Assembly: GCA_037143235.1 (NCBI GenBank)
Contig: JBAWZC010000001.1
Coordinates: forward strand, 65,132-129,131
From: Candidatus Berkelbacteria bacterium
GTDB lineage: Bacteria > Patescibacteriota > UBA1384 > XYA2-FULL-43-10 > 1-14-0-10-43-13
Direction of reading: 5' to 3'
DNA: 64,000 nt
Shown: one piece after another, positions 5,770 through 50,655 of the stretch
Layout of the letters: the number at the start of each line of letters is the position of its first letter
Numbering within the stretch: the stretch's first letter is position 1
Translations under genes and position numbers: made by a program
The notes under the pieces: generated by a model
Told to the model about the DNA's origin: nothing
The model's database searches: none
What the model saw: the letters and a program-made list of their open reading frames with translations, nothing else

Positions 5770-5856
5770 GTTGTTGTTTCCAAGGTACAAGTTACAATAA
5801 TCAGTTAAATTCCAATCACCAAATCGCAATGACCACAATTTAAAACATCTAACATT

Positions 5857-5922
5857 TGTCATTCCCGCGAAGGCGGGAATCTATTAAACAATTTGTGGAT
5901 TCCCGCCTTCGCGGGAATGACA
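5857..5922. repeat. TGTCAT-hairpin mini-element, two inverted copies (TGTCATTCCCGCGAAGGCGGGAATC ... GATTCCCGCCTTCGCGGGAATGACA) with 16-nt spacer
   Basis: Perfect 25-nt inverted pair, each arm itself a GC hairpin with GAAG loop; same unit recurs at 44558, 23713, 27737, 28032. Confidence 0.85.
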
Positions 5923-8231: not shown

Positions 8232-8272
8232 ATTCGCTTATTCGCTATTAGGATATTCGCCATCCATTTCTG

Positions 8273-18098: not shown

Positions 18099-19079
18099 CT
18101 ACTTTTTTCCATTTGCCAAATGCTCAGCATAAGTTTTTGCTGGGTAAAACACCCCTTTCACATGCTGGAAATAGAGATAATCTGTTTTTTGATAATTTTT
18201 GACAGCCTTGAGTGTCTCCAAACTCGGATTACAGATCGGCCCCTCGGGCAAACCAAAGGAATAATATGTATTATAGGGCAAAGACAAACTATTCAACTCG
18301 CTGATGCTGATCGCTTTCCAAAAAAGATAATCTATTTTGTCTGATCGAGCGAGTGCATTGTACGCAATTGTATCTTTGGCATAAATCCCCGTCGGATCAG
18401 CCTGCAACTTCATGTCGATTTTTAGGCGATTGAAATAGATACCGGCAATAATTGACTTCTCCTCTGCTCTATCTGTTTCCCTCTCCACGATCGACGCCAG
18501 TATAATATCGTCATCAGAAACTTCGAGCCCTTGCGTTTGATCATAAAATTCTTTGACCATCATCTGCACTATATCGGCAGCTGGGGTTCCTGGCTTGATA
18601 AAATATGTTGCCGGGAAAAGTTGTCCTTCATAACTAGAGGAAGCAGAATCAAAAGAACTCTCAGTCACAATGTTCTTCTTCTCTAGCGCTCGACCGATTT
18701 GCTCTCGACGCCAGCCCTCAGGTATCGTCACTCGCTCAATAAAATTTTCACCAGTCGTGAAAAATCTGATCAAATCAAATATTGATACTTTTTCCGGAAT
18801 CTCCCAGAAACCAGCTTTGAAAGGCTTCTGGTTTAGTCGAGAAAAAAAATCAAACGCAAGGGTTGATGAAATCAAGCCTTTGCCCTGTAGCTCTTTCGAC
18901 ACATATTGCTTGCTTGAACCCTCAGGAATTTCAAAAAATATCTTGGGCTGACCGGTATCAAATGGAGTCTCAGCAATCTTTTCGATACTTCGATAACTCC
19001 AAAACGCTGCGCCAATCATGGCAACAAGCACAAAAATAACAATGGCGAAAACAATTTTCGTCTTTTTGCTGAAATTCAT
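18099..19079 (-). CDS. mltG: endolytic murein transglycosylase MltG (YceG-like)
   Basis: N-terminal TM then YceG-like domain. Confidence 0.8.
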   Translation of the reverse strand: MNFSKKTKIVFAIVIFVLVAMIGAAFWSYRSIEKIAETPFDTGQPKIFFEIPEGSSKQYVSKELQGKGLISSTLAFDFFSRLNQKPFKAGFWEIPEKVSIFDLIRFFTTGENFIERVTIPEGWRREQIGRALEKKNIVTESSFDSASSSYEGQLFPATYFIKPGTPAADIVQMMVKEFYDQTQGLEVSDDDIILASIVERETDRAEEKSIIAGIYFNRLKIDMKLQADPTGIYAKDTIAYNALARSDKIDYLFWKAISISELNSLSLPYNTYYSFGLPEGPICNPSLETLKAVKNYQKTDYLYFQHVKGVFYPAKTYAEHLANGKK

Positions 19080-19471
19080 CTGTTCTCTGCGTTAATATAC
19101 TGTTCAAGAATCAAGACAGCCGAAAGTTCATCTACCTTGGCCTTGTCCTTCGATATGTCAACTCCGTTCTCGCCAAGCAATCTTTCAGCCTCCACCGAAG
19201 TAAACGATTCTTCTTCGAATATCACGGGCAAAGACGCACTTCTTTCGAGTAAAGCTGCGAAAGATCGGATTTGAGCGCCCATGCCGCCATCAGTCCCGTC
19301 TTCTCGCTTCGGCAAGCCAATAATAATTTTTTCAATCTGTTCGGCCCTGCATTTTTCTACAATCTCATCGATCACTTCTGGAGAATTTTCTAAAACGCCA
19401 AAACCTCTAGCCATCTTCTCACCGATAGCCAATCCAATTCTTTTCTTACCATAATCTATAGCTAAATACAT
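19076..19471 (-). CDS. ruvX: Holliday junction resolvase-like protein RuvX/YqgF
   Basis: MYLAIDYGKKRIGLAIGE... canonical YqgF N-terminus. Confidence 0.9.
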   Translation of the reverse strand: MYLAIDYGKKRIGLAIGEKMARGFGVLENSPEVIDEIVEKCRAEQIEKIIIGLPKREDGTDGGMGAQIRSFAALLERSASLPVIFEEESFTSVEAERLLGENGVDISKDKAKVDELSAVLILEQYINAENR

Positions 19472-19540
19472 AAATTCCGTAAATATTAATTCAAGTAGCC
19501 AATAAATATTTATTCAATTAGTCATTTAATCATCTAGTCA

Positions 19541-19640
19541 TTGATTTTCTCCACTCCTTTTCAAGGAGAGGTGGGGTGAGGTTTAATGTTTAAGATGAAA
19601 CCTCATCTATCTTCTCCTTCAAAAGGAGAAGAACCCTTGG
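19541..19640. repeat. structured ~100-nt repeat R1 (three hairpins: CTCCTTTTCAAGGAGAG / GTGAGGTTT..AAACCTCA / TTCTCCTTCAAAAGGAGAA)
   Basis: Near-identical second copy R2 at 19691-19825; contains SD/anti-SD-like self-complementary segments. Confidence 0.8.
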
Positions 19641-19690
19641 AAATTTAATAATTGAATATTGGTTATTAACTGATTATTGTCTCTTGGTTA

Positions 19691-19825
19691 TTGTATTTCT
19701 CCTCTCCTTTTCAAGGAGAGGCAGGGGTGAGGTTTAATGTTTTAAAATGAAACCTCAGCTAACCCATTCGTCTTCGCTCAGGGCAGGCTTTCTCCTTGAA
19801 AAGGAGAAGAACCCTTAGGTTAATT
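19691..19825. repeat. structured repeat R2 (copy of R1 with 30-nt internal insertion)
   Basis: Same three hairpins as R1. Confidence 0.8.
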
Positions 19826-19838
19826 AGATTAATTTATT

Positions 19839-21530
19839 TTACTTTTTGTAGTCAAACCTCACATCAATCCGATTGGCGCGCAAAGGCATAAAAGGCATGA
19901 ATGATGGAGAGACAGCTACTTTGGCACTCTCCACACCCTCCATCTTCGAAATTGCTACTTCGGCTGTTATCTTTTTCTTGAAGATAGACTTATCGACAAT
20001 CGTCTTTGCAGCAATTTTTTGACCAGATTGCCCGAGAAAATCAACATCAAGTTTGAGCAATCCCGCAGCTGCATCATTTGACAGCACAGTATAATTGGTT
20101 GTAGCCGCTTCGGGATTGATAATCGTTTTTGAACTTCCCAAATCAGCGGTGGCCAAACTCATCGCAAAATCGTATAAATTTTGTTCAGCAAAACCGAGAA
20201 CAGTCAGCTTGCCGCTGCCAACAGCATCAAATTGGTCTGCCTCGTCATCAGCTTTTTTATTAAACTGGACACTAGTTAATTCGAAGGCAACAGAAGTATC
20301 AATCACCTTTACGCCCTCTTTGGTCGCTTTATCCAATATTTCTGGCTTGCCTTCGGTCAACATCGCATCCTTTATCGCAACATTAGCCTTCTCAATATCC
20401 TCTGCGGTCACGACTTTCACTTCCTTGTCTGTACCACCAGCGGTACTTCCTTTGGCCGAAATCGTACTTGGTTTTCCGGCAACCACAAAGACAGAACCAT
20501 CAGAAAAGTTACCAGCCACACCGCCGGCGACAGCCGTGACTGATCCCTGTATTGTGCCAGCAATAGGCAAACCATTAGAACCGAGTGTGCCCTTCGGAAC
20601 AATGATAGTTTTGTCGACCGTAAAACTAACTTGACCGCTTGTAACCGTAGATCCAGCATTGATCTGTTGATTGTCAACACCATTTGTATTCGAAAATGTC
20701 AGTGTTCCCTTGGCCTTTTCACCATTATTTTTTGTGCCAGTCGCAGGATAAGTTTTGGTCAAGCTTTTATCAAGTAGGACGACGACACCAGGCAAGATAG
20801 CCTTAGCGCTATCGAGAACAGTCGCATTTTTATCGACCACAATCTGGAATTTTTGTTTATACTCAACTGTTTTCATGGTTACAGCAACTGTCGCCGACGG
20901 AATGTAAATAGCCCAAGCGATCAGAGCCAAAAAAACCAGACCGACGAGCCCCATATTCACATATTTTCTGTATTTCGAATTATTCATATCCTTACCTCGC
21001 AATTCTTTAGGTAATTGTCGGTGCAAATAATTTGTATCCTTGCTGTGATCATCAGTAGCGGCTGCCAAGGGTAATGCCTCGCCATCACTAATCTTAATTT
21101 TTCGAACTTTGATCTTGTCTTCAACTTCGACAGACTCATCAGTACCAGTCATTAAGTCAACATCATCATTTACCAGTCTCTCACTTTCGTTCTGGTAATT
21201 ATGAACGCGAAAATTTGGTCGGCTATCAGCCGCAATTGCCTCGGCCGCTGGAGACCAATCAGCATTTTTAACTTCATCAATACTATCAAATGATTCAATG
21301 CCGAGCTGACCAGATAAATTCCTTGTAACGCTGTCGGAAGTAACTATACAAATGCGTTTGTGCGATTCCTTTGCTGCCCGCAGCAATAATTTTAAGTTAA
21401 TCACACTTTGAGCCAATGTCGAATTTCTTGGAATAACGAAAATAAGCTGCTTTTCCTCAGCTTTTTTGAGCTTATCGATAACCTCAGTTATCTCTTCGTT
21501 GATTTCCAAATAAATCGTTTTATTCATCAT
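19839..21530 (-). CDS. hypothetical bitopic membrane protein (cytoplasmic N-domain, single TM, Thr/Gly/Val-rich extracellular C-domain)
   Basis: 563 aa; TM MGLVGLVFLALIAWAIYIPSA near residue 200; directly downstream of ftsA. Confidence 0.6.
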   Translation of the reverse strand: MMNKTIYLEINEEITEVIDKLKKAEEKQLIFVIPRNSTLAQSVINLKLLLRAAKESHKRICIVTSDSVTRNLSGQLGIESFDSIDEVKNADWSPAAEAIAADSRPNFRVHNYQNESERLVNDDVDLMTGTDESVEVEDKIKVRKIKISDGEALPLAAATDDHSKDTNYLHRQLPKELRGKDMNNSKYRKYVNMGLVGLVFLALIAWAIYIPSATVAVTMKTVEYKQKFQIVVDKNATVLDSAKAILPGVVVLLDKSLTKTYPATGTKNNGEKAKGTLTFSNTNGVDNQQINAGSTVTSGQVSFTVDKTIIVPKGTLGSNGLPIAGTIQGSVTAVAGGVAGNFSDGSVFVVAGKPSTISAKGSTAGGTDKEVKVVTAEDIEKANVAIKDAMLTEGKPEILDKATKEGVKVIDTSVAFELTSVQFNKKADDEADQFDAVGSGKLTVLGFAEQNLYDFAMSLATADLGSSKTIINPEAATTNYTVLSNDAAAGLLKLDVDFLGQSGQKIAAKTIVDKSIFKKKITAEVAISKMEGVESAKVAVSPSFMPFMPLRANRIDVRFDYKK

Positions 21531-22933: not shown

Positions 22934-24826
22934 CTAAGATAATACTGCCTTGATACGCCGTACCCCTGCACTCGAGCTCTCTTCTTTCAAAATCTTGAAA
23001 TGACCAAGCTCACCAGTTCTGTTGGCATGGGGACCGCCACAAATCTCCTTAGAAAAATCATCGACGGTATAAACTTTAACTTTGTCGCCATATTTGGCGT
23101 CAAATACACCCATAGCACCCTGTCCTTTAGCTTCATCCACACTCATCTCTGCCATCTCTACAGGCAGGTCTTTCTCAATTTGTGCGTTCACTAGAGCTTC
23201 GACCTGTTTAATTTGTTCGACAGTCATTTTTTCAGGATAAGAAAAGTCAAATCTGAGTCTTTCTGGCGTGATGTTTGATCCTTTTTGGTAGACATTCTCA
23301 CCCAAAACGAACCGTAAAGCAGCCAACATCAAGTGAGCAGCGGTATGCAACTTCGTTGTTTCTTCTCCAGCATCGGCCAGACCACCCTTGAACATCCCCG
23401 CGGAAGCCGTACGAGACAAATCTTGGTGATTCCTTAGCATCACTTCAAAAGTTTTTCTGGTATTATTTTCTATGGGGATATTTAATCGTGTTGCCTCCTC
23501 TGCACTCAATTCATAAGGAAATCCAAAAGACTGATATAAATTGAAAAATTCTTCAGCAGTAAATTCTACTTTTTTCCACTCTTCTTCATTGCTCTTTGTC
23601 TTCATGGCGGCAATAATTTTAAACTGAAGCAGCCCTCTTGTAAGTGTTCCTCTAAATTTCTCCTCTTCTTTTTCCAACTCGAAGAGAATCATTTTTTGTT
23701 TGTCATCATTTGCTGTCATCTCGAGCGAAGTCGAGAGATCTTTTTCTGTAGATTTCTCCACCCTCTCTTCGAGTGGAGTCGAAATGACAGACCCAAAATA
23801 AACTCCGTTGTAAATCTCGAAAACTTTGCGAGCAACCTTGGCGGTAAAATTCTGTTCAATCCCCAGCTGTTGCCCCTTCACAATCGCCCGCCTGATCAAA
23901 CGACGCAAAACATAGCCTCTATCCTTATTTGAGGGCACGACCCCATCATTGATCATAAATGTGGCAGCTCGAATGTGATCAGCAATTACACGAAAAGATC
24001 TCTCGACTTCACTCGAGATGACAGAGGAAGAGCTATATTTTTTACCAGAAATACTTTCAATTTCTCCCAAAATAACCTCGAATAGATCAGTTTCGTAAAC
24101 ATTATCTCTCCCTTCGAGGTATGCCAGTAAACGCTCTAACCCACCACCAAAATCGACATTTTTTTGTTTCAAAACTTCCAGAGTACCATCAATGTTCTTA
24201 TTAAATTGCATAAAAACATTATTGCCGATTTCTACCCACTTCTTGTCGGCTGGATCATATTTCAGAGGGGCATCCCCTTCACCTGTCCAAACAAATATTT
24301 CGGTATCATGGCCACACGGACCGGTGACACCAGCAGGACCCCACCAGTTGTCTTCATAACCCAAAAACGCAATTCTCTCATCGGGGATACCGAGAGATCG
24401 CCAAATACCCGCAGCCTCCTCGTCCTTAGCAAGATCATTTGCAGAGTCACCCTGAAAACAAGTAACAGCCAGATTCTTCCGATCGATCAAAAGTTCTACC
24501 GTCAAAAATTCATAGATATTTTTGATCGCTTCTTCTTTGAAGTAATCCCCGAGTGACCAATAACCAAGCATCTCAAAAAATGTGCAATGAGTTTTGTCTC
24601 CAACCTCGTCAATATCACCCGTCCTGATGCATTTCTGAACATTACAAAGCCTCTTGCCCGCCGGATGGCCTTCCCCCATCAGATATGGCACCAGAGGGTG
24701 CATACCAGCAGTCGTAAAGAGCACTGTCGGGTCATTTTCTGGCACCAAAGAAGCAGAAGGCACCACTTGGTGCCCCTTTTCTTTGAAGAAATTGATAAAT
24801 TTTTGTCGTAGTTTTATAGAAGTCAT
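22934..24826 (-). CDS. alaS: alanyl-tRNA synthetase (short form: catalytic + editing domains, no C-Ala domain)
   Basis: N-term MTSIKLRQKFINFFKEKGHQVVPSASLVP..TTAGM; editing HxxxH (HTAAHLMLAAL), CGGPH; only 630 aa. Confidence 0.88.
   Translation of the reverse strand: MTSIKLRQKFINFFKEKGHQVVPSASLVPENDPTVLFTTAGMHPLVPYLMGEGHPAGKRLCNVQKCIRTGDIDEVGDKTHCTFFEMLGYWSLGDYFKEEAIKNIYEFLTVELLIDRKNLAVTCFQGDSANDLAKDEEAAGIWRSLGIPDERIAFLGYEDNWWGPAGVTGPCGHDTEIFVWTGEGDAPLKYDPADKKWVEIGNNVFMQFNKNIDGTLEVLKQKNVDFGGGLERLLAYLEGRDNVYETDLFEVILGEIESISGKKYSSSSVISSEVERSFRVIADHIRAATFMINDGVVPSNKDRGYVLRRLIRRAIVKGQQLGIEQNFTAKVARKVFEIYNGVYFGSVISTPLEERVEKSTEKDLSTSLEMTANDDKQKMILFELEKEEEKFRGTLTRGLLQFKIIAAMKTKSNEEEWKKVEFTAEEFFNLYQSFGFPYELSAEEATRLNIPIENNTRKTFEVMLRNHQDLSRTASAGMFKGGLADAGEETTKLHTAAHLMLAALRFVLGENVYQKGSNITPERLRFDFSYPEKMTVEQIKQVEALVNAQIEKDLPVEMAEMSVDEAKGQGAMGVFDAKYGDKVKVYTVDDFSKEICGGPHANRTGELGHFKILKEESSSAGVRRIKAVLS
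23701..23789. repeat. TGTCAT-hairpin mini-element (inverted pair) inserted in-frame inside alaS
   Basis: TGTCATCTCGAGCGAAGTCGAGAGATC ... CTCTCTTCGAGTGGAGTCGAAATGACA; encodes linker peptide ...VISTPLEERVEKSTEKDLSTSLEMT... Confidence 0.7.
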
Positions 24827-24980
24827 AAATGATACATTTATTTATTCATTTAGCCATTTAGTCATTTAATCATTTATTGAATATTTGATTATTGGTTATT
24901 AACTGATTATTGTCTCTTGGTTATTGTTTCTTGTCTGTTTAGGTCAATTAGAATAATTAAAGCAATTAGATTAATTCTAC
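24827..24980. repeat. ~150-nt intergenic repeat family copy (catttagYcatttaatcat...ttggttattaactgattattgtctcttggttattgt...ttaggtcaattagaataatta..attagattaattcta)
   Basis: Homologous copies at 19472-19838 (interrupted by R1/R2), 48900-49030, 37681-37850 (inverted) and partial at 380-425. Confidence 0.8.
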
Positions 24981-26989: not shown

Positions 26990-27607
26990 TTATCTGCTTA
27001 TACAGGTACCGACAACTGGATATTTCGTAATAGCCGAAAGGGCATGTCTGGTAAAAAAATCATTTGTCAGATCTTGCCCGGCAGCGTGTCCGTAATGATA
27101 ACCATTTTTGAAAACAGAAGAGAGATCGTAAACAGTCCCATTGACGGCCAGATAAGCCGCTACGCCGTTTTTACCATTATACTGCGCCAATTGAGACGCT
27201 GTAAATGTTCGCGTGGTGCTAGAACTTGATATTTGAGATGTTGAAGAAGTCGATGTGTCAGAGGCAACACTGACGACCTGACCACCCTCCTCACTCTCTC
27301 CTTTGCCATAATACCGGTCAACATAAACAAAACCGATGACAAAAGTCATGTATACCAACAATAAAACTATTTTGGAGAATATATTCCAAAAGGACCACCG
27401 CTTCAATGCCAGATGAATAGCAAAAGAAGTATGAATAACGAAAGAAATCAACAGCATGTAAGTCAAAATATTGTTATGAATCGTCGTCGCCCACGAAGCA
27501 TCTATGATCCCCTTCGTCATACCATAACCGCTTATAATATAAAGAAAGAGTGTGATCAACAACACCCAAGCCGCGATGCGATCAAGTTTAATTAACATTT
27601 TCATCAT
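26990..27607 (-). CDS. membrane protein with C-terminal cytochrome b5-like heme/steroid-binding domain
   Basis: 3-4 N-terminal TMs, Ser/Thr linker, then LAQYNGKNGVAAYLAVNGTVYDLS...GYHYGHAAGQDLT (cyt-b5-like fold). Confidence 0.6.
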   Translation of the reverse strand: MMKMLIKLDRIAAWVLLITLFLYIISGYGMTKGIIDASWATTIHNNILTYMLLISFVIHTSFAIHLALKRWSFWNIFSKIVLLLVYMTFVIGFVYVDRYYGKGESEEGGQVVSVASDTSTSSTSQISSSSTTRTFTASQLAQYNGKNGVAAYLAVNGTVYDLSSVFKNGYHYGHAAGQDLTNDFFTRHALSAITKYPVVGTCISR

Positions 27608-27614
27608 AATATGA

Positions 27615-27700
27615 AAACTCCTCAGCTTCTCAGTTTGTCAACTTTCTAACTTATCAGCTTAAACACTTACTGGCTTATCAGCTTAAACTCTTACCAGTTT
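27615..27700. repeat. intergenic repeat family 'AGCTTAAACACTTACTAGCTTATCAGCTT' (tandem units)
   Basis: Similar arrays at 28085-28175 and 50560-50655. Confidence 0.75.
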
Positions 27701-27708
27701 ACTCGCTT

Positions 27709-28057
27709 CTGTCATCTCGAGCCCCCCCCTTTTTTTTGTCATCTCGAGCTTGTCGAGAGATCTTTCAACTCTGGATTCATCTCACAAATCAGAGCTAATT
27801 TCTTTGACCGACTCCATCTTTTTAACTGTTTTTCTCTTTCTAATATTACTTTAACATCATTTGATAATTCGAAATATACTAATTTATGGCATCTGTATTT
27901 CTTTGTAAATCCATCGACTAAATTGTTCTTATGCTCATATACTCTTCGGACAAGATCATTGGTCATGCCGATATACAACACATTACTAAAACTGGCCACA
28001 ATATAAACATAATATGTTTTATCTTGCATAAGATTTCTCCACAAGGTCGAAATGACA
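27709..28057 (-). mobile_element. mini mobile element: GIY-YIG endonuclease gene bracketed by inverted TGTCAT-hairpin repeats (27737-27762 and 28032-28057)
   Basis: TGTCATCTCGAGCTTGTCGAGAGATC on the 3' side and its relative GATTTCTCCACAAGGTCGAAATGACA (inverted) immediately 5' of the ORF start; solo half-copy plus poly(C)/poly(T) at 27709-27737. Confidence 0.6.
27739..28029 (-). CDS. GIY-YIG homing endonuclease-like protein
   Basis: Start MQDKTYYVYIVAS...LYIGMTNDLVRRVYEH (GIY..YIG, R, E motif); ORF-track N-extension is repeat-derived. Confidence 0.8.
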   Translation of the reverse strand: MQDKTYYVYIVASFSNVLYIGMTNDLVRRVYEHKNNLVDGFTKKYRCHKLVYFELSNDVKVILEREKQLKRWSRSKKLALICEMNPELKDLSTSSR

Positions 28058-28173
28058 GGAGTGTGATGGTCCAAACAACAGAAAAACCGGATGAAACGAC
28101 ACTGATTCAGCTAACTGGCTTTCTGGTATAAACAATTATTAGCTTAAACACTTACTAGCTTATCAGCTTGTTT

Positions 28174-30113: not shown

Positions 30114-33100
30114 CTACTTTATCCATCTTCCCATCCAACCAAAGATGTTTTGCATCGTGTTCAAGATAATCTGCAAGGCAGATCTCGAAATATCACCAGA
30201 AATGACCGTGTTATCACCCGAGGTAGACATATTCGCAGACATATCAGCTGAAAGAATTCTCAGATGGTATGGTTTACCTGGATCAAGATCAGAAATAATA
30301 ACCAAATGATGATTGGTAAATGTCGTATCAAGTGATGTCTTGTTGGTGTACTCGTTCCCAGACAAACCAATGCCAAACTCAACCTGCGAACTAGCCGGTT
30401 CGTCTGTTTTCCATGAAACTGCAACCTGAGCCTTGGCATTGCCAGTATTACCAATATTGGATGATTCAATCACAATATCGGAAATTCTCGGCGGGCGGCT
30501 ATCATTTGGCGTATCAAAAACTGTTTTCGTTGATTCCGCCACATTACCAAATTGATCCCTGCCCTGAGAGTATACGGTATATTTCTGATTATCGGCCAGA
30601 TCTGAGACTACAATCTCATGAACGAGAGACAGGTCAGATATTGATTGCTCTTTGAAATTGACGCCGTCAGTCGAGTATTTGACCGTCCCAGAAGTTGGCA
30701 CATTTGTCTCCCAAGCAACCTTGAGCGTAGTAGTCGGTGCCTCTTTGACTGGTTCGATGCCAAATTTGGAGATTGTCGGCATCGGCAGAGTAGCAAAAGA
30801 GTTCTCACTTCGAAGCTCATTACCGTCAGAGTCTCCTCCAACCAAGCGATAGAAATATGTTGTGCCTGGCTTCAGGTTGGAGATAGCCAAACTATGATTG
30901 GTCGTCGAACTATTAGAATCTTCGTTAATATTTTCACCAAAATCAGAGGTTTCACCATATTTGAGGGTGAAGTTTGCCATCGAAGTGCTCTTGAAATTAA
31001 TGATCGCCGAACTCTGGGTGATATTGGAAACAGTTAAATCATAAACACTTGGCGTGTTCGCTGTTTTGAATTCTTGGTTTGGCCCCAACAGCGAATTGCC
31101 GTCGACATCAGTCGATCGAATATTAAAAGTATAATCCGTTTGAGATTTCAAGCCGACAACTTTCACTTCGTGATCGGTGGTTTGAGCGACCTGACCCTGT
31201 TCAGAGACAAAAGTGTTGCCATTTTTGATCTGTACAAACGAAGATGATTCCCGATCAGTGACCCATTTCACACTGATCGAAGTTGGATTGACGGTGATCT
31301 TCGGCGCAGAAACCAAAACAGGTGGTGTAGTATACCGACCAGTTGGAGTGACTGAGACGACAGCAGAGGGAGCAGATGATTGACCAGCACTGTCCTTTGC
31401 AACAACATAATAGTAATACTGTGTAGATATCATGGGAGAGACGTCAGAACCTGCATCAGCAAAAATACGACTATCTGTTGGACCAATATTAGCGAAAGTA
31501 ACCCCATCGGTTGAACGATAAACATTATACCCAGCAAATACGCCTGTGCCCTTATCCTCGGGCGCATTCCACTTCACCGCTACAGCATAATTTTGAGTAT
31601 TGCGGTCAGAAATATCATATGCTTGAACCGCGCCAGGAATACCAGGGGCTGTCGTAGTCGCAGAAAAAGCAACCGCCGCGCAAGTGTCAGTATTTGCATT
31701 ATAATTAACCGACGATGGGGAGCAACCAGAAAAATCATAATTTCCTGCATTATCCTTGGCTACGACATAAAGAATATTCTCGCCTTGTTTCGTCGCATAG
31801 GAACCAGTCGACAAAGAAGTACCAGAAGCAAAGTTCGCACTATCAATTGAAGGGACAACATTCACCGAATAATAATATCCAGCAATTTCGCCCGGTGAAG
31901 CATCCCAAGCAAAAGCAAACTGATTGGTGCTTGAATTGGCAGAGGTCGTTCGCAAATTTGCTGGTGCTGCTGGTGCCAGATTATTAAAATAAAAGTTAGT
32001 ACGTACTGGTAAACTGCTCGCGTTGCCAGCCGTATCGACAGCTTGGAGATAAAATATATTTACACCCTGTGCTGCCACATCTGCCAAAGTCACCGAATTC
32101 GTCGTGGCATCTCCAGTGATATCATGCCACGAAACCTCGTTGCCAATCCGATACTGATATTTTTGCAAACCTGAACCACCCGTATCTACCGCCGCGTTTT
32201 GGCCAGTTGTCGGCCAAGTGAAGGTGAAATTGTTTGTTCGGCTATAGCCAGAAGGAGCAACCGAGACATACAGAGGTGTCGCCGGCGCCACATTATCATA
32301 TTTATAGGCAAACAAATTGTAGTCGGTAGAAGTCGCGTGATAGGCAGGGTTCGAAGCATTGTCAACTGCCACTACCTTCAGGTAATAAGTTGAACCAGCA
32401 ACAAGCGTTGTCGAAGAAGTAAAGGTATCTGATACACCAACTGTATTTTGCCAAATAAATGAACCATTGTTGGCGCCAACCGCAACTAAACCACTAGAAA
32501 GACCGATATTGGCGGTATTATCTGTGCCAAAGTAAACCAAGTAACCAGCCAGACCAGAAGTAAGTTCATTTTGATTTGCGTTGTCAGCCGGTGCGGTCCA
32601 TGAAAACGATGGTGTGGCGTAATTATGCCAAGTATCGGTGGTCAAAGTCGTCGCTCCACCCAAAGCATTTTTGGCAACAACGGTGACAACACTGGGATTG
32701 TTCGGTGCCGCCGTATCGGAAACATAGGTCATATTAATTGAACTTAGGGCTGGATTATCTATTCCGTCAGTGACGAAAAATGCTCGCCATTTGATATTAT
32801 GCGCCGGCGTAATAGTCGGAAAAGTAGAAATATTAGCATTTACTTCCGCAGCTGTATTGGTCTGATAAGCATTATTTTTATCAGCCAAAGTCCAAGCCGC
32901 ACCATTGTAGTAGTAATAGCTAGCCGAGGCGATACTACCAACCGTAGAATCATTTGACAATTGATAATGCAGTGTCCCAGTCGAGCCACCAGCTAAGCTT
33001 TCACTATAGCCCTCAAGCGACGAATAAGTCATTGGCGATTTGAGTGACAAAGTTGGATAAATCGAGCTGCTCGCCGCTGGTGTCGAACTCTCAGCAACAG

Positions 33101-35921
33101 TGATGCCATACTTGGCACCCAAAGTTTTTTCCACACTATTGCGTGAAGTATTATCTAAAATAGATTTTTGAATAACGACCGGCCCAATCCAACCGTCAAA
33201 GGCTCGGTCACCAGCCGCTTTATTGCCAAGATATGTTGGACCTCCAACAGTAGGAGGTCCAGATACTTGGTCAGCAGTTCCGCTGAGTGCCCCATTAATA
33301 TAAACATTAACTTTACCATCAGCTTTGCGTGTCACAGAAACAACGTAAGGAGTGTTAAAAGCAATTGAAGATATTGGTGTCACCGCATATCCTGTACTGC
33401 TATCACTACTAACCTGTATTGCATTACTATTTACATTACTCATGCATATATAAAATTTGGAATTATCAATAATTCTTCCCACACTACTGCCTCCACTACT
33501 TCTTGGTTTTATCACCGTCGTCACCGTTACATCGCCCGTACCAATCAAATCGGTAGAATTACCCAATGTATCATCAACCCCATCAAATTGAAAAGCTGGG
33601 TGGCTATTTATACCAGATACATCATAAACCGGTCGCAGGGTTTGAGATGTCTGAGTGAAGGTGTTGGAATGACCAGAAAGATCAGTTATTTTACTAACTG
33701 CACCATCATAATAACCAACACCGTATCCCTGAGTAACTGTTCCAACATCACTCAAGTCATTTCCATTGGCTGTCTGGTCTAACCTAGTTCCCGATTTTGT
33801 ATCTAAATTCCAAAATCCTTTGAGACTCGCATCACCAGAAATTGAAGTCGGTAGTCCCGCGTATTTTAATCCTTTGCCGCCATTAAATAATGCTGTTTTT
33901 TCATCTGTCGTTAAAATCCTCTTAATCATTCCCCAGCCGTCAGCACGACCTGGAAGAGAATTTGCTGCCCCATTGGCGTAACTACCGATATTGAAGTCAT
34001 TTGCTGCAGACAAAACCCCAGCGGAAGTCGCCGTAGTAACTGGCGTACCATTGTTTACACTAATAAATATCTGATTGTTTACTGAGTCGTGACCATAAAC
34101 GATAAAATACCAGTTGCTAGTTGAAACAACATCTGTGAATACATTCTGACTAGCGCTATCTGCAGCATTTCTGACATAGAATTGAAACCTATTAAATGGA
34201 GCAACTGTAGCAGTTCTCAACATATATTCACCACCAACACCATTGGCGTTTCCTTTAGAAATAATTCCGCCTGGATTAGAGCCGACAAAGAAATTGTCCA
34301 TATTCACCCAACCAAATAGAGTGAAGTCAATATCTCCAGTTTGTAAAGAGGCGTTGCTTGTTCGTTTTAGATAATTGCTTGTTCCATTAAACTGAGCTGC
34401 AAAGTTAGAGTCTGTTGAAAGTCCTGCAGCGATACCAGCAGCAGCCAGAGGTCCGACTGATTCAATAGTGACATTGTCCAAAAATACTGATTTTGAAATA
34501 TAACCTGAGTTTCCAGTAATATAGAAGTTACCATTAGTGGCTGTAAAATAAACTGTGTATTGAGCATAAGATGTCGTCAGTGTGACCGTTGAGTATCCTG
34601 TGTTACTATCACCAACCCTGATTACAACACCAGTTCCAGAAGCCTTACCATAGAAAGTTACCTTGTACTTTTTACCAGTGACCAAGCCTCCATTTTGAGC
34701 AAGGGAAGCACCTTGTGCAGCAGCATCAAAGTCAAACCTAGCAGCATAAGTTCCTGAGTAAGGAGCGGAAGTTTCAGCATTTATTGTTGATAATCCAGCA
34801 CGAGTCTCTATCCAAGTAGCAAATACGTCAGCACCACCAGCACCGAGAGTCTCAAATCCACCATTGAGAGTCGTAGCATTGATTAGTTGGACGCCAGCAG
34901 GAGTTAAATTGTTAGTACCCTTGGCGTCGTAGCGAGTGCCAGACTCCTCATTCATACCCCACCAAGAAGTCAATGCAGTTTGAAAACTATCCAAACCATT
35001 GGCCGAGGTCAAATCTGCATAAGTACGACCATTGCCAGAATTATACAAAGCTGTTGCTTCGCCAGAAGTTGAAATGGATTTTTTGAAATATGCGGAGTCG
35101 ATACGACCATTGAGAGGTAGTGCGAGGTCGGATTGATTTCCGATTACAAAGGCAGTAGCACCAGCCGTAATAGCTACATCAGCTAAAGAAATTGTAGCAG
35201 CATTATTGACAGAAATGTTGACTGTATTAGCCGTAGCGTCGTGCCAACCCCGAACAAAATACCAAGTAGAAAGGCTCGCCGTTCCAGTTTGTATTGCTAC
35301 CGCAGTATTACCACCAAACTTAAAGTTCTGACTAACAGATGAATACCAAAGTCCATATTCACCACTACCAGCTAATCCTTTTGAAATAATCATTCCACTC
35401 ACATTGCTATCAAGGTAAACCCACGCTCCAACCTCGAAATCGATATCACCAGTCTGGAGCGAGGCGTTGCTTGGAACAGTTAAATAGTCTTTGTTTGCTG
35501 CTGTAAACTGTGCCGCACCATCGGCACTGACGCCAGAAGCAGGGTTGATATTAGTCGTGGCACCAGTGGCAGCACCTGGAGTTGAAAGAGTCGCTTTTGA
35601 ACTTGTAGTGGAAATCCCAGCATCGGCCTGATAAATACTATTGTCGCCACTAAAATTCCAGGTTTGGGTTGCCGCCATAACCTTATCTGGCGAGCCACCG
35701 TAAAAAGTTGTAAGCAAAAAACTGGCGAGCAATAAGATGACGCCGACTGTGACCGAACCAGCTTTGACATTCAAATTCAAATGCTTTTTGCGAAGCTGCC
35801 AAGCAGATGGCTTCGCCGAGATATTATTTTTAACAGCAAAAACACTCTTCTTTACACCTAAAGCAAAAGTTTTTAGACCCTTTACAACTTTTTTGAGGCT
35901 AATCTGCAATCCCCTCCCCAA
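30114..35921 (-). CDS. giant secreted/surface protein (1935 aa) with repeated LamG/ConA-like jelly-roll and FN3-like modules
   Basis: N-terminal TM/signal; repeated LTVPSNASLQTGDIDF.. / LKRTSNASLQTGDIDF.. blocks; Ser/Thr/Asn/Gly-rich beta repeats. Confidence 0.7.
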   Translation of the reverse strand: MGRGLQISLKKVVKGLKTFALGVKKSVFAVKNNISAKPSAWQLRKKHLNLNVKAGSVTVGVILLLASFLLTTFYGGSPDKVMAATQTWNFSGDNSIYQADAGISTTSSKATLSTPGAATGATTNINPASGVSADGAAQFTAANKDYLTVPSNASLQTGDIDFEVGAWVYLDSNVSGMIISKGLAGSGEYGLWYSSVSQNFKFGGNTAVAIQTGTASLSTWYFVRGWHDATANTVNISVNNAATISLADVAITAGATAFVIGNQSDLALPLNGRIDSAYFKKSISTSGEATALYNSGNGRTYADLTSANGLDSFQTALTSWWGMNEESGTRYDAKGTNNLTPAGVQLINATTLNGGFETLGAGGADVFATWIETRAGLSTINAETSAPYSGTYAARFDFDAAAQGASLAQNGGLVTGKKYKVTFYGKASGTGVVIRVGDSNTGYSTVTLTTSYAQYTVYFTATNGNFYITGNSGYISKSVFLDNVTIESVGPLAAAGIAAGLSTDSNFAAQFNGTSNYLKRTSNASLQTGDIDFTLFGWVNMDNFFVGSNPGGIISKGNANGVGGEYMLRTATVAPFNRFQFYVRNAADSASQNVFTDVVSTSNWYFIVYGHDSVNNQIFISVNNGTPVTTATSAGVLSAANDFNIGSYANGAANSLPGRADGWGMIKRILTTDEKTALFNGGKGLKYAGLPTSISGDASLKGFWNLDTKSGTRLDQTANGNDLSDVGTVTQGYGVGYYDGAVSKITDLSGHSNTFTQTSQTLRPVYDVSGINSHPAFQFDGVDDTLGNSTDLIGTGDVTVTTVIKPRSSGGSSVGRIIDNSKFYICMSNVNSNAIQVSSDSSTGYAVTPISSIAFNTPYVVSVTRKADGKVNVYINGALSGTADQVSGPPTVGGPTYLGNKAAGDRAFDGWIGPVVIQKSILDNTSRNSVEKTLGAKYGITVAESSTPAASSSIYPTLSLKSPMTYSSLEGYSESLAGGSTGTLHYQLSNDSTVGSIASASYYYYNGAAWTLADKNNAYQTNTAAEVNANISTFPTITPAHNIKWRAFFVTDGIDNPALSSINMTYVSDTAAPNNPSVVTVVAKNALGGATTLTTDTWHNYATPSFSWTAPADNANQNELTSGLAGYLVYFGTDNTANIGLSSGLVAVGANNGSFIWQNTVGVSDTFTSSTTLVAGSTYYLKVVAVDNASNPAYHATSTDYNLFAYKYDNVAPATPLYVSVAPSGYSRTNNFTFTWPTTGQNAAVDTGGSGLQKYQYRIGNEVSWHDITGDATTNSVTLADVAAQGVNIFYLQAVDTAGNASSLPVRTNFYFNNLAPAAPANLRTTSANSSTNQFAFAWDASPGEIAGYYYSVNVVPSIDSANFASGTSLSTGSYATKQGENILYVVAKDNAGNYDFSGCSPSSVNYNANTDTCAAVAFSATTTAPGIPGAVQAYDISDRNTQNYAVAVKWNAPEDKGTGVFAGYNVYRSTDGVTFANIGPTDSRIFADAGSDVSPMISTQYYYYVVAKDSAGQSSAPSAVVSVTPTGRYTTPPVLVSAPKITVNPTSISVKWVTDRESSSFVQIKNGNTFVSEQGQVAQTTDHEVKVVGLKSQTDYTFNIRSTDVDGNSLLGPNQEFKTANTPSVYDLTVSNITQSSAIINFKSTSMANFTLKYGETSDFGENINEDSNSSTTNHSLAISNLKPGTTYFYRLVGGDSDGNELRSENSFATLPMPTISKFGIEPVKEAPTTTLKVAWETNVPTSGTVKYSTDGVNFKEQSISDLSLVHEIVVSDLADNQKYTVYSQGRDQFGNVAESTKTVFDTPNDSRPPRISDIVIESSNIGNTGNAKAQVAVSWKTDEPASSQVEFGIGLSGNEYTNKTSLDTTFTNHHLVIISDLDPGKPYHLRILSADMSANMSTSGDNTVISGDISRSALQIILNTMQNIFGWMGRWIK

Positions 35922-36035: not shown

Positions 36036-36178
36036 TGGTGCCCGAGGCGGCCTGCCCGCCATCGCAAGGCTCAGGCATTGCAGGCGGGGAGTCGAACCCG
36101 CATAGCTTGAGGCCACATCATTTTAAGTGATGCGTACCTGCCTGCCGGCAGGCAGGTATACCATTCCACCACTCGCCC
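36036..36178 (-). pseudogene. tRNA-Leu(UAA)-like chimeric/disrupted copy
   Basis: Shares 5' acceptor/D-arm and anticodon arm (CATCA-CTTAAAA-TGATG) with intact tRNA at 36305-36389 but has a 20-nt palindrome (CTGCCTGCCGGCAGGCAGG) after the D-arm, a ~34-nt insert after the T-arm, and a 3' acceptor (CTCGGGC) that pairs with the 5' fragment at 36690, not its own 5' end. Confidence 0.55.
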
Positions 36179-36304
36179 ATTATTGTTTTAACTATTTTCC
36201 AAGAACCGTTTATAAGCTCTATTCTACCATTCAATGAGAAATCGGCTACCTTTTTGTGAAGCAAAAGAATGGCTGCGGATCGGCATGCTGTTTAAATTTA
36301 TTTG

Positions 36305-36389
36305 TGGTAGGCGAGGCGGGAGTCGAACCCGCATCCCTTGAGGGGACATCATTTTAAGTGATGCGTGTATACCATTCCACCACTCGCCC
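36305..36389 (-). tRNA. tRNA-Leu(UAA), CCA encoded
   Basis: GGGCGAG..GTGGAATGGTATAC..CATCA-CTTAAAA-TGATG..long variable arm..GCGGGTTCGACTCCCGC..CTCGCCT-ACCA. Confidence 0.85.
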
Positions 36390-36390
36390 A

Positions 36391-36632
36391 TTATTGTTTT
36401 AACAAACCGTCGATCTCTTCTCTTCCGATACCTGATTTAAAATACTTTTCTCTTTCCCGTGCTTCTGTTCTAGTGGCATATTTCTCAAAATGAATCAACT
36501 TCAAGGGCATTTTATTTTTCGTTGACCGAACTCTTCCAGAATTATGCTGACTTATTCTTCTTTCAAGATTATCAGTTAATCCTTTGTAAACAAAATTACG
36601 AGACTCTGATTTTAGAAGATACACATAATACA
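36391..36632 (-). CDS. GIY-YIG homing endonuclease-like protein
   Basis: Start MYYVYLLKSESRNFVYKGLTDNLERRISQHN; ATG directly abuts a duplicated tRNA anticodon-loop segment; ORF-track N-extension is tRNA-derived. Confidence 0.8.
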
Positions 36633-36690
36633 TTTTAAGTCCTTCGTGCCTGCCTGCCGGCAGGCAGGTATACCATTCCACCACTCGGGC
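36633..36690 (-). pseudogene. tRNA-Leu 5'-half fragment (acceptor GCCCGAG..D-arm..palindrome..anticodon loop CTTAAAA)
   Basis: GCCCGAGTGGTGGAATGGTATAC-CTGCCTGCCGGCAGGCAGG-CACGAAGGACTTAAAATG; ends at GIY-YIG ATG. Confidence 0.6.
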
Positions 36691-36692
36691 TT

Positions 36693-37700
36693 TTATACAA
36701 TTTCCCAAATATTATTGACCTTGGATAGCTCACCTTCGATCGTAAACCCAGCAGCTTTTTTATGGCCGCCGCCGCCAAGCAGTGAGGCTAATTTTGACAG
36801 GTCAACATCATCTCGCTCAGTTCGCAAGCTCCCCATGATAGTACCATTTTCACTCTCGTATATCAACAAAGTCGCCCGAGTTCCGGGCACAGTATTCAGC
36901 AAATTAATCAAACCAGAAAGATCATCCTCTGACGCCCCAGATAGCAATCTATCTTCTTTCGACAAAACTGAATAAGCAATGCCAAACTCATCATTTATCG
37001 ACAGACGATCCATCGCCACTCCCCAAATTTTCAGCTTTGAAACTGACTTTTCGTGAGAAATATTCTCAGAGATTTTCTTCAATCTAGCTCCACAACACAA
37101 CAGCTTGGAGACTATTTTCATCACATCTTCCGAGGTATTGCTGTGCTGAAAACCGCCTGTATCAGTGTATATTCCGCACAAAATATAGGTCGCAACATCA
37201 GCATCAATATCACAGCCTAGTCCAGTTACGATCCGATAAACTATTTCAGCCGTCGAACTTGCCTGATCATCCACATAGTTCACATCGGCCAGTCGCCAGA
37301 GATCATTTTTGGGATGATGGTCGATATTGATAACAAAATTGCCATTTTTCTTGCAGTCAAGAATCATTTGCTCAACCTTGGTTCGACGCAAATCACCACA
37401 ATCCAAAATAATGATCGTCTCTTCTTGGGAAACAGTGAGACTATGAAGTCCATTCGTACTAACAATCTGGTCGTGCTCACCGAGAAATCGGAAAACTTCC
37501 GGTACTGGGTCAGCACAAATCATTCTGACTTCCTTGTTCTTTTGCCTCAACATTGCCGCCATTGCAAGAATAGACCCGACGGCATCACCATCAGGACTCT
37601 CGTGGCAAATGAGCACAAAAGATTTGGTTCCCTCGATCAACTTTTTCAGATTTGAGAATGAACCCATGTGAAATATAATTACCGATTGATCAAGATACAA
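36693..37700 (-). CDS. DHH/DHHA1 family phosphoesterase (NrnA-like)
   Basis: LICHESPDGDAVGS, NIDHHP motifs. Confidence 0.85.
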   Translation of the reverse strand: MYLDQSVIIFHMGSFSNLKKLIEGTKSFVLICHESPDGDAVGSILAMAAMLRQKNKEVRMICADPVPEVFRFLGEHDQIVSTNGLHSLTVSQEETIIILDCGDLRRTKVEQMILDCKKNGNFVINIDHHPKNDLWRLADVNYVDDQASSTAEIVYRIVTGLGCDIDADVATYILCGIYTDTGGFQHSNTSEDVMKIVSKLLCCGARLKKISENISHEKSVSKLKIWGVAMDRLSINDEFGIAYSVLSKEDRLLSGASEDDLSGLINLLNTVPGTRATLLIYESENGTIMGSLRTERDDVDLSKLASLLGGGGHKKAAGFTIEGELSKVNNIWEIV

Positions 37701-37850
37701 TAACCAAGAAACAATAATCAGTTAATATCCAATTACCAATTTCCAACCTGCCTGTCGGCAGACAAATTACTCAATCAATGTTCATATAATCAAATTACCA
37801 AATAAATGGCTAAATGATTAATTGATTAAATGACTAAATGATTAAATGCT
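37681..37850. repeat. ~150-nt intergenic repeat family copy (inverted orientation)
   Basis: reverse complement matches 24827-24980 family (..ggatattaactgattattgtttcttggttattgtatcttg..). Confidence 0.75.
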
Positions 37851-44459: not shown

Positions 44460-44557
44460 CTCTCACAAAACAAACTGACCACCCCGAATAACGAGGTGGT
44501 CGTGGTTTTTTGTAATTCATCGAAACTGCCGAGTAAGTGCCGACAATTTCTCCCTTT

Positions 44558-44589
44558 TGTCATTCCCGCGCAGGCGGGAATCCACAAAT
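44558..44589. repeat. solo TGTCAT-hairpin unit (TGTCATTCCCGCGCAGGCGGGAATCCACAAAT) between convergent rlmN and membrane gene
   Basis: matches arm + CACAAAT tail of 5857-5922 element; probably also acts as terminator. Confidence 0.8.
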
Positions 44590-48899: not shown

Positions 48900-49030
48900 A
48901 AAAAGCTAAGAGAAAGAATCATTAGTGATTGAGTGTTGGTTATTAACTGATTATTGTCCCTTGATTATTGTATCTTGTCCGCTTAGGTCAATTAGAATAA
49001 TTAGAAATTAGGTTAATTCTATACTGATCA
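48900..49030. repeat. ~150-nt intergenic repeat family copy
   Basis: gttggttattaactgattattgtcccttgattattgtatcttgtccgcttaggtcaattagaataattagaaattaggttaattcta. Confidence 0.75.
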
Positions 49031-50094: not shown

Positions 50095-50536
<442 letters not shown>

Positions 50537-50559: not shown

Positions 50560-50655
50560 AATTATAAACCTATTCGACTACATTCGGAAGCTTATTAGCT
50601 TAAACACTTACTAGCTTACCAGCTTAAACACTTACTAGCTTATTAGCTTAAACCA
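50560..50655. repeat. 'AGCTTAAACACTTACTAGCTTA' tandem intergenic repeat
   Basis: three tandem units; same family as 27615-27700, 28085-28175. Confidence 0.8.

Follow-up and report, generated by a model that had tools for sequence, protein, structure and literature searches.

Triplex-motif doublets of the BoxC type nested in an intergenic repeat of a Candidatus Berkelbacteria genome, and their possible relation to DUF559 nuclease cassettes

INTRODUCTION

The BoxC repeat of Escherichia coli, known from the 1990s, was subsequently described as the 'PIT element' (Hoyne and Maher 2000) and then as TM_ECO (Holder et al. 2015; PMC4666352). There are 23 TM_ECO copies in strain MG1655, and five sites carry inverted pairs, which always combine one type A with one type B arm; more than 260 genomes contain related G/C-rich motifs (PMC4666352). 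The isolated TM_ECO strand forms a stable triplex in vitro (PMC4666352), and in a second paper the E. coli motif sequence is treated as a G-quadruplex/hairpin switch. PIT elements showed neither promoter nor terminator activity in E. coli, and no association of TM_ECO with transposons, phages, or plasmids was found (PMC4666352). Here, we analyze two elements, R1 and R2, located upstream of ruvX in a Candidatus Berkelbacteria bacterium of the candidate phyla radiation (CPR; Patescibacteria). The DNA analyzed, below called the window, is a stretch of 64,000 nucleotides (nt) from contig JBAWZC010000001.1 of assembly GCA_037143235.1 (positions 65,132 to 129,131), and all coordinates without a contig name refer to it.

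RESULTS

R1 and R2 are doublets of triplex motifs

R1 and R2 occupy the 367-bp spacer between ruvX (19076 to 19471, minus strand) and an open reading frame (ORF) of 563 amino acids (aa) (19839 to 21530, minus strand). A first-pass annotation, made from the letters of the window, had described them as two copies of a three-hairpin element nested in an intergenic repeat, and both the structure and the nesting were confirmed. The alignment of R1, R2, and two further copies, R3 and R4 (see below), refined the limits to 19545 to 19638 for R1 and 19695 to 19816 for R2 (both plus strand). Neither element carries an ORF. R1 is the short form, an inverted pair (doublet) of triplex motifs with 37-nt arms that are 78% complementary, and as single-stranded DNA it folds into three hairpins (-21.4 kcal/mol; z = -4.15). 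The long form, R2, is 82% identical to R1, exceeds it by 26 nt at positions 19763 to 19788, and folds with a z score of -5.5, also as single-stranded DNA. All of the hairpins quoted in the annotation were present. Hairpin CTCCTTTTCAAGGAGAGG is found at 19554 to 19571 and 19704 to 19721 and is inverted at 19611 to 19628 and 19789 to 19806; together with its inverted versions, it gave five matches, all within R1 and R2, against 0.07 expected from shuffles. The 19-mer GGGGTGAGGTTTAATGTTT had exactly two matches (19573 and 19724; 0.01 expected).

The annotation had missed a third block, GGTGAGGTT, and this block identifies R1 and R2 as BoxC/PIT/TM doublets. A class II triplex motif consists, on one strand, of a pyrimidine block (Y), a loop, a complementary purine block (R), a second loop, and a G/T block (H) that mirrors the purine block. 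A motif finder with ITxF-like limits (stems of 6 to 15 nt, at most one mismatch, short loops, and G·G, A·A, and T·A pairing) called three of the four arms of R1 and R2 (9 to 10 triads, at most one mismatch) and nothing else comparable in the 64 kb. GGTGAGGTT is the purine block reversed, with G opposite G and either T or A opposite A, so that in their letters the arms match exactly the rule of an antiparallel purine-motif (class II) intrastrand triplex. The left motif of R1 (19551 to 19583, plus strand) reads CCACTCCTT / ttc / AAGGAGAGG / tgg / GGTGAGGTT in the order Y, loop, R, loop, H and forms nine triads with one mismatch in Y, and the right motif (19599 to 19632, minus strand) reads TCTTCTCCTT / ttg / AAGGAGAAGA / t / AGATGAGGTT and forms 10 perfect triads. 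Nine perfect triads are formed by the left motif of R2 (19701 to 19734, plus strand; CCTCTCCTT / ttc / AAGGAGAGG / cagg / GGTGAGGTT). The right arm of R2 (19751 to 19808, minus strand) was missed by the finder because its loop 2 is expanded: sequence and alignment place the hairpin TTCTCCTT/AAGGAGAA at 19790 to 19808 and the mirror block at 19751 to 19758, with an insert between them, and the arm retains an 8-bp hairpin and seven of the eight mirror positions. The pairing that the annotation had called Shine-Dalgarno/anti-Shine-Dalgarno-like proved to be a side effect of the polypurine and polypyrimidine blocks.

The insert in loop 2 of the right arm of R2 is a 26-nt G+C-rich mini-hairpin (CCCATTCGTCTTCGCTCAGGGCAGGC; 19763 to 19788, plus strand); R1 and R3 lack it, and R4 has a homologous insert. 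The nesting thus has three levels, with the mini-hairpin inside the doublet and the doublet inside the host repeat. Mini-hairpins of the type CCCTGAGC(GAAG)..CGAAnGGG were also observed within triplex-motif loops at ~10480 to 10510 of contig L122 (R4), at ~3300 to 3325 of L016, and in L058; R2 and R4 carry theirs in loop 2, a motif of a Kapaibacterium metagenome-assembled genome (MAG) carries one in loop 1, and the L016 insert reads CCCTGAGCGAAG..GGG. This suggests that mini-hairpins form a third nesting level with a possible preference for motif loops. A regular-expression search of the fetched loci for CCCTGAGCGAAG..GGG as a frequent element returned only two matches, which leaves this form anecdotal.

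The mirror block covaries with the purine block

A single position distinguishes the two arms of R1, and Y, R, and H have all changed accordingly: R from AAGGAGAGG to AAGGAGAAG, Y from CC.. to CT.., and H from GG.. to GA... The central stem therefore has a G.T mismatch, and each mirror block tracks its own arm and not the opposite one. The same left arm, AAGGAGAGG, and right arm, AAGGAGAAG(A), are found in R1 and R3. The mirror rule was tested on 275 polypurine hairpins with asymmetric purine blocks, from which the pattern-selected arm was left out to avoid circularity. A perfect mirror block was present in 61 of the 275, compared with 8 under a direct-repeat rule and a mean of 6.6 (maximum, 12) after swapping of purine blocks. 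The mirror constraint is therefore real and general, and a direct-repeat origin of the third block is ruled out by the asymmetric purine blocks. For R1 and R2, the covariation is compatible with a triplex in the isolated strand.

R1 and R2 interrupt an A+T-rich host repeat

As the annotation had claimed, the spacer contains a copy of an intergenic repeat family. The core of this host repeat, TTGGTTATTAACTGATTATTGT, had five matches in the window (19659, 24892, and 48936 on the plus strand; 37711 and 5794 on the minus strand) compared with 0.00 expected from shuffles. Core matches and alignment define uninterrupted copies at 24827 to 24980, in the leader of alaS, and at 48929 to 49030 (both plus strand), as well as an inverted copy at 37681 to 37850 (minus strand) that carries a different small G+C hairpin (TCTGCCGACAGGCAGG). 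A partial fifth copy, identified by its core (5780 to 5840, minus strand), adjoins a dRS3-like palindrome pair. Upstream of ruvX, the host repeat lies on the plus strand in three segments: a left one with an array of CATTTAnT-type octamers (19472 to 19544; aligns to 24827 to 24876), a middle one (19639 to 19694) with the core at 19659 to 19680, and a right one (TTAGGTTAATTAGATTAATT; 19817 to 19838) that aligns to 24940 to 24980 and 48985 to 49020. In a multiple alignment, the host-repeat copies at 24827 and 48880 show clean gaps opposite R1 and R2; the insertion junctions are approximate rather than base-precise, and R2 stands in place of ~11 nt (TCTTGTCYGY).

Other palindromes were observed at host-repeat copies. 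The small G+C hairpins CCTGCCTGCCGGCAGGCAGG, TCTGCCGACAGGCAGG, and GGTCTCGAGCTTGTCGAGAGA lie within or beside them at 37740 to 37790 (minus strand), 36119 to 36175, and 36631 to 36687 in the window and at ~8640 to 8700 of L122, and G+C palindromes seem to land preferentially in the host repeat. The dRS3-like hairpin, GTCATTCCCGCG(A/C)AGGCGGGAATC, fits the Neisseria dRS3 consensus ATTCCC-N8-GGGAAT and is present as an inverted pair at 5848 to 5915, as a single copy at 44549 to 44582, and as a 91.5%-identical copy at 2399 to 2469 of L122. This cross-phylum small palindrome also adjoins a triplex motif in a Chiayiivirga MAG (L076).

Further copies and an empty site

A metagenome scan with an R-specific pattern returned two further copies from this lineage, which thus has at least four, on JGI contigs that match the window in G+C content (41.5 to 42.2%) and have repeats in common with it at 91 to 99% identity. 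R3 is a short form in a fusA-tuf spacer, and R4, on L122, is a long form in a dnaX-dnaB spacer. R4 has its homologue of the 26-nt R2 insert in the same place and, in the other arm, a second, different G+C hairpin; in both R2 and R4, insertions break an arm. The genes next to R1 to R4 are unrelated housekeeping genes (ruvX, tuf, and dnaB), the elements lie in both orientations relative to transcription, and the spacers are ones that are normally cotranscribed. An ORF on L122, likewise of 563 aa, was rejected as a paralogue of the 563-aa ORF of the window, as it is dnaX.

In a syntenic relative (L121), only 58 bp separate the orthologous genes, and this spacer is free of repeats. Searches for a regulatory function of the R1/R2 region were negative. 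With Rfam at the gathering score, the window yielded tRNAs alone and no family over R1 and R2; at an E-value threshold, the region gave generic microRNA-hairpin look-alikes, all of which were subthreshold. The terminator scan of the region found no hairpin followed by a T-run (0 sites), and the promoter scan showed no excess above shuffles.

Related motifs in other phyla

The exact string GGAGAGGGCCGGGGTGAGG led to the study of Holder et al. (2015; PMC4666352). The pattern TTCAAGGAGAGG-N0-4-GGGGTGAGG, derived from R1 and R2, was scanned over one genome per GTDB species and matched at least 119 genomic stretches, compared with ~1.4 estimated by chance. The matches listed belong to Nitrospirota, Bacteroidota, Ignavibacteriota, Desulfuromonadota (Geomonas/Geomesophilobacter), alpha-, beta-, and gamma-Proteobacteria, Chloroflexota (Dehalococcoidia), Melainabacteria, Leptospirales, and five CPR MAGs; the few archaeal matches in coding regions have no pyrimidine block and are probably due to chance. 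An inverted partner motif was found within 160 nt in 28 of the 124 matches listed, giving the same three-hairpin doublet as in R1 and R2. Among these, the purine blocks of the partner arms are diverse (AGGGGAGGA, AGGAGAAGG, AGGGGGAGG, AAGGAAGGAGA, and others), and each has fitting pyrimidine and mirror blocks. The matches shade into the consensus described for E. coli, CCCTCTCCC-N-GGGAGAGGG-N-GGGTGAGGG. In viral contigs, the general pattern was found in only 4 of 2.9 million and the A+T-shifted pattern in none, so that phages are no evident carrier.

Many copies in three phyla have an extension, CAGCC(G/A)AC, 2 to 6 nt before the pyrimidine block (L150/L158 of N. gonorrhoeae; L001, L014, and L041 of Nitrospirota; L004, L026, and L030 of Geomonas), and R1 to R4 have TT(T/A)TC(T/C)CC at this position instead. 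As the extension is conserved, the functional end of the element may lie beyond the triplex motif. In N. gonorrhoeae (L158), triplex motifs also form tandem arrays of ~280-nt units at 23716 to 24410 and 31836 to 34105, with 21 motifs in 49 kb; these arrays may correspond to the neisserial intergenic mosaic elements.

DUF559 nuclease genes lie between inverted motifs in other phyla

When 2366 ORFs from 119 motif-bearing loci among the matches listed were clustered all against all, a single small family recurred beside the motifs: DUF559 proteins of 110 to 130 aa, encoded at five loci and never more than 350 nt from a motif. In the same clustering, no transposase family, including the Y1 transposases associated with REP sequences (RAYTs), recurred near motifs. 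At three loci (L018, L044, and L037), the DUF559 gene lies between two inverted motifs whose mirror blocks point towards the gene. The cassette ORF matches PF04480 and PF18741 and the N. gonorrhoeae 'endonuclease-like protein' 3HRL (E = 2e-29). Its close homologues number 2545, most of them from very short contigs. Further loci were picked by exact protein identity and not by motif, and at every distinct site, the same order was observed: motif (Y-R-H), TGGGT, ATG, and ORF, with the stop codon, TGA, supplied by the loop of the right-hand motif. A complete cassette measures ~440 bp, and its ORF has ~125 aa.

Gene-less doublets of the same lineages have the same two arm types (AGGAGAGGG and AGGGGAGGA) and the same TGGGT/ACCCA inner junctions, and their spacers are 18 to 20 nt, compared with 362 to 377 nt in cassettes. 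Retained arms and junctions with a short spacer are as expected from internal deletion of a cassette. One orthologous site next to a methyltransferase gene was found in three states. In L147, the gene directly adjoins its downstream neighbor (79% identical between genomes), and the site is empty; in L148 and L149, one solo motif lies between the genes; and in L133, L125, and L135, a full cassette and a solo motif are present.

Distant DUF559 homologues from isolates (40 to 58% identity) were retrieved by tblastn from PLSDB records, and all six that were inspected (Sinorhizobium, Sphingomonas, Azospirillum, Deinococcus, N. gonorrhoeae, and Picosynechococcus PCC 7002) had motifs within ~100 nt. 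The purine blocks of these isolates are lineage-specific (GGGGAGAGGG, GGGAGGGG, GGGGGAGGG, or G-only). In 49-kb windows, motifs were within 250 nt of a DUF559 gene in 4 of 4 cases for Sinorhizobium and 5 of 7 for Sphingomonas, and in N. gonorrhoeae, the DUF559 gene is abutted by one of two dense motif arrays. E. coli ycjD was rejected as a clean cassette, because its motif is on the same strand and the second copy is degenerate; it represents a supportive adjacency rather than the canonical architecture. The literature on DUF559, ycjD, COG2852, and PF04480 contained no link to BoxC/PIT/TM repeats and no function for DUF559, in a search that left most subscription journals outside.

In four Nitrospirota loci (L127, L128, L132, and L138), an element with an rve-family (IS3-like) transposase is inserted within the right-hand cassette motif, which is reminiscent of insertion sequence (IS) elements that target REP sequences.

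Gene neighborhood and other repeats of the window

The window has a G+C content of 42%, and most of its genes are on the minus strand. The product of ruvX (131 aa), downstream of the repeat-filled spacer, matches TIGR00250 (RuvX; E = 1.3e-22) and is followed in gene order by mltG, mreB, and mreC. Exact protein matches at NCBI were RuvX (MEI8143079.1), MreB (MEI8143077), and an alanyl-tRNA synthetase (AlaRS)-like protein (MEI8143082), all from a Candidatus Berkelbacteria MAG. The AlaRS-like protein (22934 to 24826) is short (630 aa) and matches PRK01584, a short form; NCBI lists it as 'alanine--tRNA ligase-related'. The 563-aa ORF upstream of the spacer had no match in NCBIfam or Pfam searches and only 12 homologues among 5.8 billion proteins, close comparison being limited to one homologue with 100% and one with 50% identity.

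Repeats other than those described above were also observed. A 133-nt A+T-rich palindromic element at 50120 to 50252 precedes the ATP synthase c-subunit gene and shares 99% identity with positions 8254 to 8386 of L122, upstream of dnaX; it looks like a recently duplicated miniature inverted-repeat transposable element (MITE)-like sequence unrelated to R1 and R2. Tandem 24-nt repeats (AGCTTATCAGCTTAAACACTTACT and variants) are present at three intergenic sites (27600 to 27712, 28109 to 28173, and 50565 to 50653). Beside tRNA-Leu(taa), the 3' halves and flanks of tRNA-Leu are duplicated (36087 to 36135 / 36318 to 36366 and 36156 to 36192 / 36367 to 36403 / 36668 to 36704), and these pieces resemble remnants of tRNA genes or an integration site used repeatedly.

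DISCUSSION

R1 and R2 are BoxC-type triplex-motif doublets that are present in multiple copies and inserted in intergenic DNA of a CPR bacterium. As their copies have unrelated neighbors, lie in both orientations, and are missing from the 58-bp spacer of a relative, and as no Rfam family, terminator, or promoter was detected, we infer that they are selfish, non-autonomous insertions that tolerate operon transcription and are tolerated by it and that they are not regulators of ruvX. Of the three possibilities raised in the first-pass annotation (a MITE, an attenuator, or a small structured RNA), the MITE-like one thus stands, since R1 and R2 are multicopy quasi-palindromes with no ORF, and the two RNA-based ones do not. 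The explanation as a whole, in which R1 and R2 are A+T-shifted BoxC/PIT/TM doublets that behave as non-autonomous selfish insertions, is in our view probably correct; their derivation from DUF559 cassettes like those of other phyla is a hypothesis. Taken alone, R1 and R2 are an ordinary selfish repeat of a known family, and what is new is the A+T-shifted form and its presence in a CPR lineage.

The machinery that spreads R1 and R2 would recognize their paired structured ends. The mirror block may be retained because the recognized form or intermediate is a folded single strand (a triplex, or a hairpin beside a G-tract) or because both blocks are read by a protein. Judging from other phyla, the doublets could be internally deleted derivatives of ~440-bp cassettes in which the two motif types form terminal inverted repeats around a DUF559 nuclease ORF of ~125 aa (Vsr fold; PD-(D/E)XK), and this nuclease would be the likely trans-acting enzyme that mobilizes the doublets or homes to them. 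More broadly, the BoxC/PIT/TM repeats might be the terminal repeats, solo remnants, and miniatures of cross-phylum ~440-bp selfish cassettes whose sole gene encodes a DUF559 nuclease recognizing the triplex-capable ends, with R1 and R2 as gene-less members in CPR. Such a repeat would codiversify with its nuclease, giving the GGGAGAGGG, GGGGAGGA, GGGAGGGG, GGGGG, and AAGGAGAGG types. We put forward this generalization tentatively and give it somewhat less credence than its negation.

Several observations weigh against a spread of R1 and R2 as cassette-derived selfish elements. In E. coli, no triplex was detected in vivo and no transposition of BoxC has been reported (PMC4666352). The relative with the empty site is distant (50% amino acid identity over the 563-aa protein), so the insertion is undated, and a target-site duplication, looked for at the flanks of R1 to R4 and of five DUF559 cassettes, was not visible. 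In three of the four copies, R is flanked by similar A+T-rich sequence, with CATTTAnT arrays to its left and AAATTTAATAATT to its right, and a target preference or co-duplication with part of the host repeat is therefore inseparable from simple insertion. Cassettes with ends matching those of R1 and R2 were found in other phyla; the 93 kb covered for this lineage (the window, L122, and L123) contained neither such a cassette nor a DUF559 ORF, and the link of DUF559 to R1 and R2 is therefore drawn from other phyla. The DUF559 architecture also varies between compact motif-ORF-motif and doublet-ORF-doublet arrangements, so that no single simple transposition model fits all, and E. coli ycjD (DUF559) has TM_ECO no. 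9 168 nt downstream, in a non-canonical orientation.

We considered whether the doublets are instead landing pads, i.e., that a free-standing DUF559 homing-endonuclease gene invades the doublet spacer and that the doublets themselves spread by another route. The ORF indeed always lies exactly in the doublet spacer, a solo motif with no gene exists at one site, and a Vsr-fold homing endonuclease, I-Bth0305I, is on record, as cited in PMC3424549. However, in several lineages with differing motif sequences, the right-hand motif itself supplies the C terminus and stop codon of the ORF, which suggests long coevolution over repeated invasion, and the arrival of doublets at new sites would be left unexplained; we therefore consider this scenario rather unlikely. 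A somewhat lower probability is assigned to the proposal of Holder et al. that the motifs are not mobile and are DNA structures (triplex, G-quadruplex, or cruciform) selected by the host as hot spots of replication or recombination that generate useful variability. It is favored by the strong triplex-compatible covariation, by the greater variability and rearrangement of TM_ECO loci among E. coli strains (PMC4666352), and by the other small hairpins gathered in the host repeat of the window. Instability is equally expected of selfish palindromes, however, and near-identical sequences across phyla, presence/absence polymorphism at orthologous sites, and the tight bracketing of a nuclease ORF point to horizontal spread; that no triplex was detected in vivo also argues against the proposal.

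As R1 and R2 form stable folds between two codirectional genes, they could also be cis-regulatory RNA in the ruvX leader (an attenuator, a terminator, or processing or stabilizing hairpins), with AGGAG/CTCCT sequestering or mimicking a Shine-Dalgarno sequence. REP-type hairpins do stabilize upstream mRNA in E. coli. Against such a role stand the negative Rfam, terminator, and promoter results, the other copies, which precede tuf and dnaB and also lie in the opposite orientation, the orthologous spacer that has no such elements, the insertions that break an arm in two copies, and the lack of observed promoter and terminator activity of PIT elements in E. coli (PMC4666352), and we regard it as very unlikely. 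An assembly artifact or a chance similarity can practically be dismissed. Palindromes often break or misjoin assemblies, and contig L120 of the independent Logan assembly SRR7053653 stops at the center of R1, presumably because assemblers often stop at palindromes; up to that point, however, it is 100% identical to the NCBI assembly, more copies are present on JGI contigs, and the shuffle expectations were 0.00 to 0.07.

With R1 and R2, the BoxC/PIT/TM family now includes a CPR lineage, and the cassette link offers a testable answer to what BoxC-type repeats are and why near-identical copies are found in unrelated phyla. If that link is true, the DUF559 family, including E. coli YcjD and the N. 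gonorrhoeae 3HRL protein, gains a role, the cassettes are a new kind of minimal mobile element, and the triplex-compatible covariation has a candidate reader. Assembly breaks and spurious proline/serine-rich ORF extensions at motif sites would also be explained.

In comparison with known systems, R1 and R2 are closest to BoxC/PIT/TM_ECO, with which they share the block order (Y, loop, R, loop, and mirror G/T block) and the core letters CTCTCC..GGAGAGG..GGTGAGG. Both are intergenic and multicopy, occur in either orientation, singly or as inverted pairs of two arm types, and have no promoter or terminator signature. R1 and R2 differ in that their ends are A+T-shifted (..CCTT / AAGG.. / ..GGTT, adding T·A:T triads), in that they reside in a CPR genome with 42% G+C, and in that they are nested in a local repeat and are themselves host to a 26-nt G+C hairpin. 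Published work on BoxC/PIT/TM_ECO made no link to a mobile element, whereas a link to DUF559 cassettes is proposed here. The REP/REPIN-RAYT system (Y1, IS200/IS605-like) is similar in its short palindromes, its inverted doublets that form long hairpins, the lack of target-site duplications, and a single-copy gene bracketed by the repeats that it is thought to mobilize. However, the cassette gene encodes a DUF559 PD-(D/E)XK protein and not a Y1 transposase, the motif has no GTAG-type 5' tetranucleotide and includes a third, mirror block, and the motifs are near-identical across phyla, whereas REPs are species-specific. Classical MITEs (Correia/NEMIS, RUP, BOX, and Nezha) resemble R1 and R2 in being ~100 nt long with terminal inverted repeats and no ORF and in being intergenic, often cotranscribed, and nested, but R1 and R2 have no target-site duplication, and no parent with a DDE transposase was found. 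Finally, the cassette ORF resembles the DUF559/Vsr-fold nucleases (YcjD, PDB 3HRL, and I-Bth0305I) in its matches to PF04480, PF18741, and 3HRL, whereas no DUF559 gene was seen near R1 and R2.

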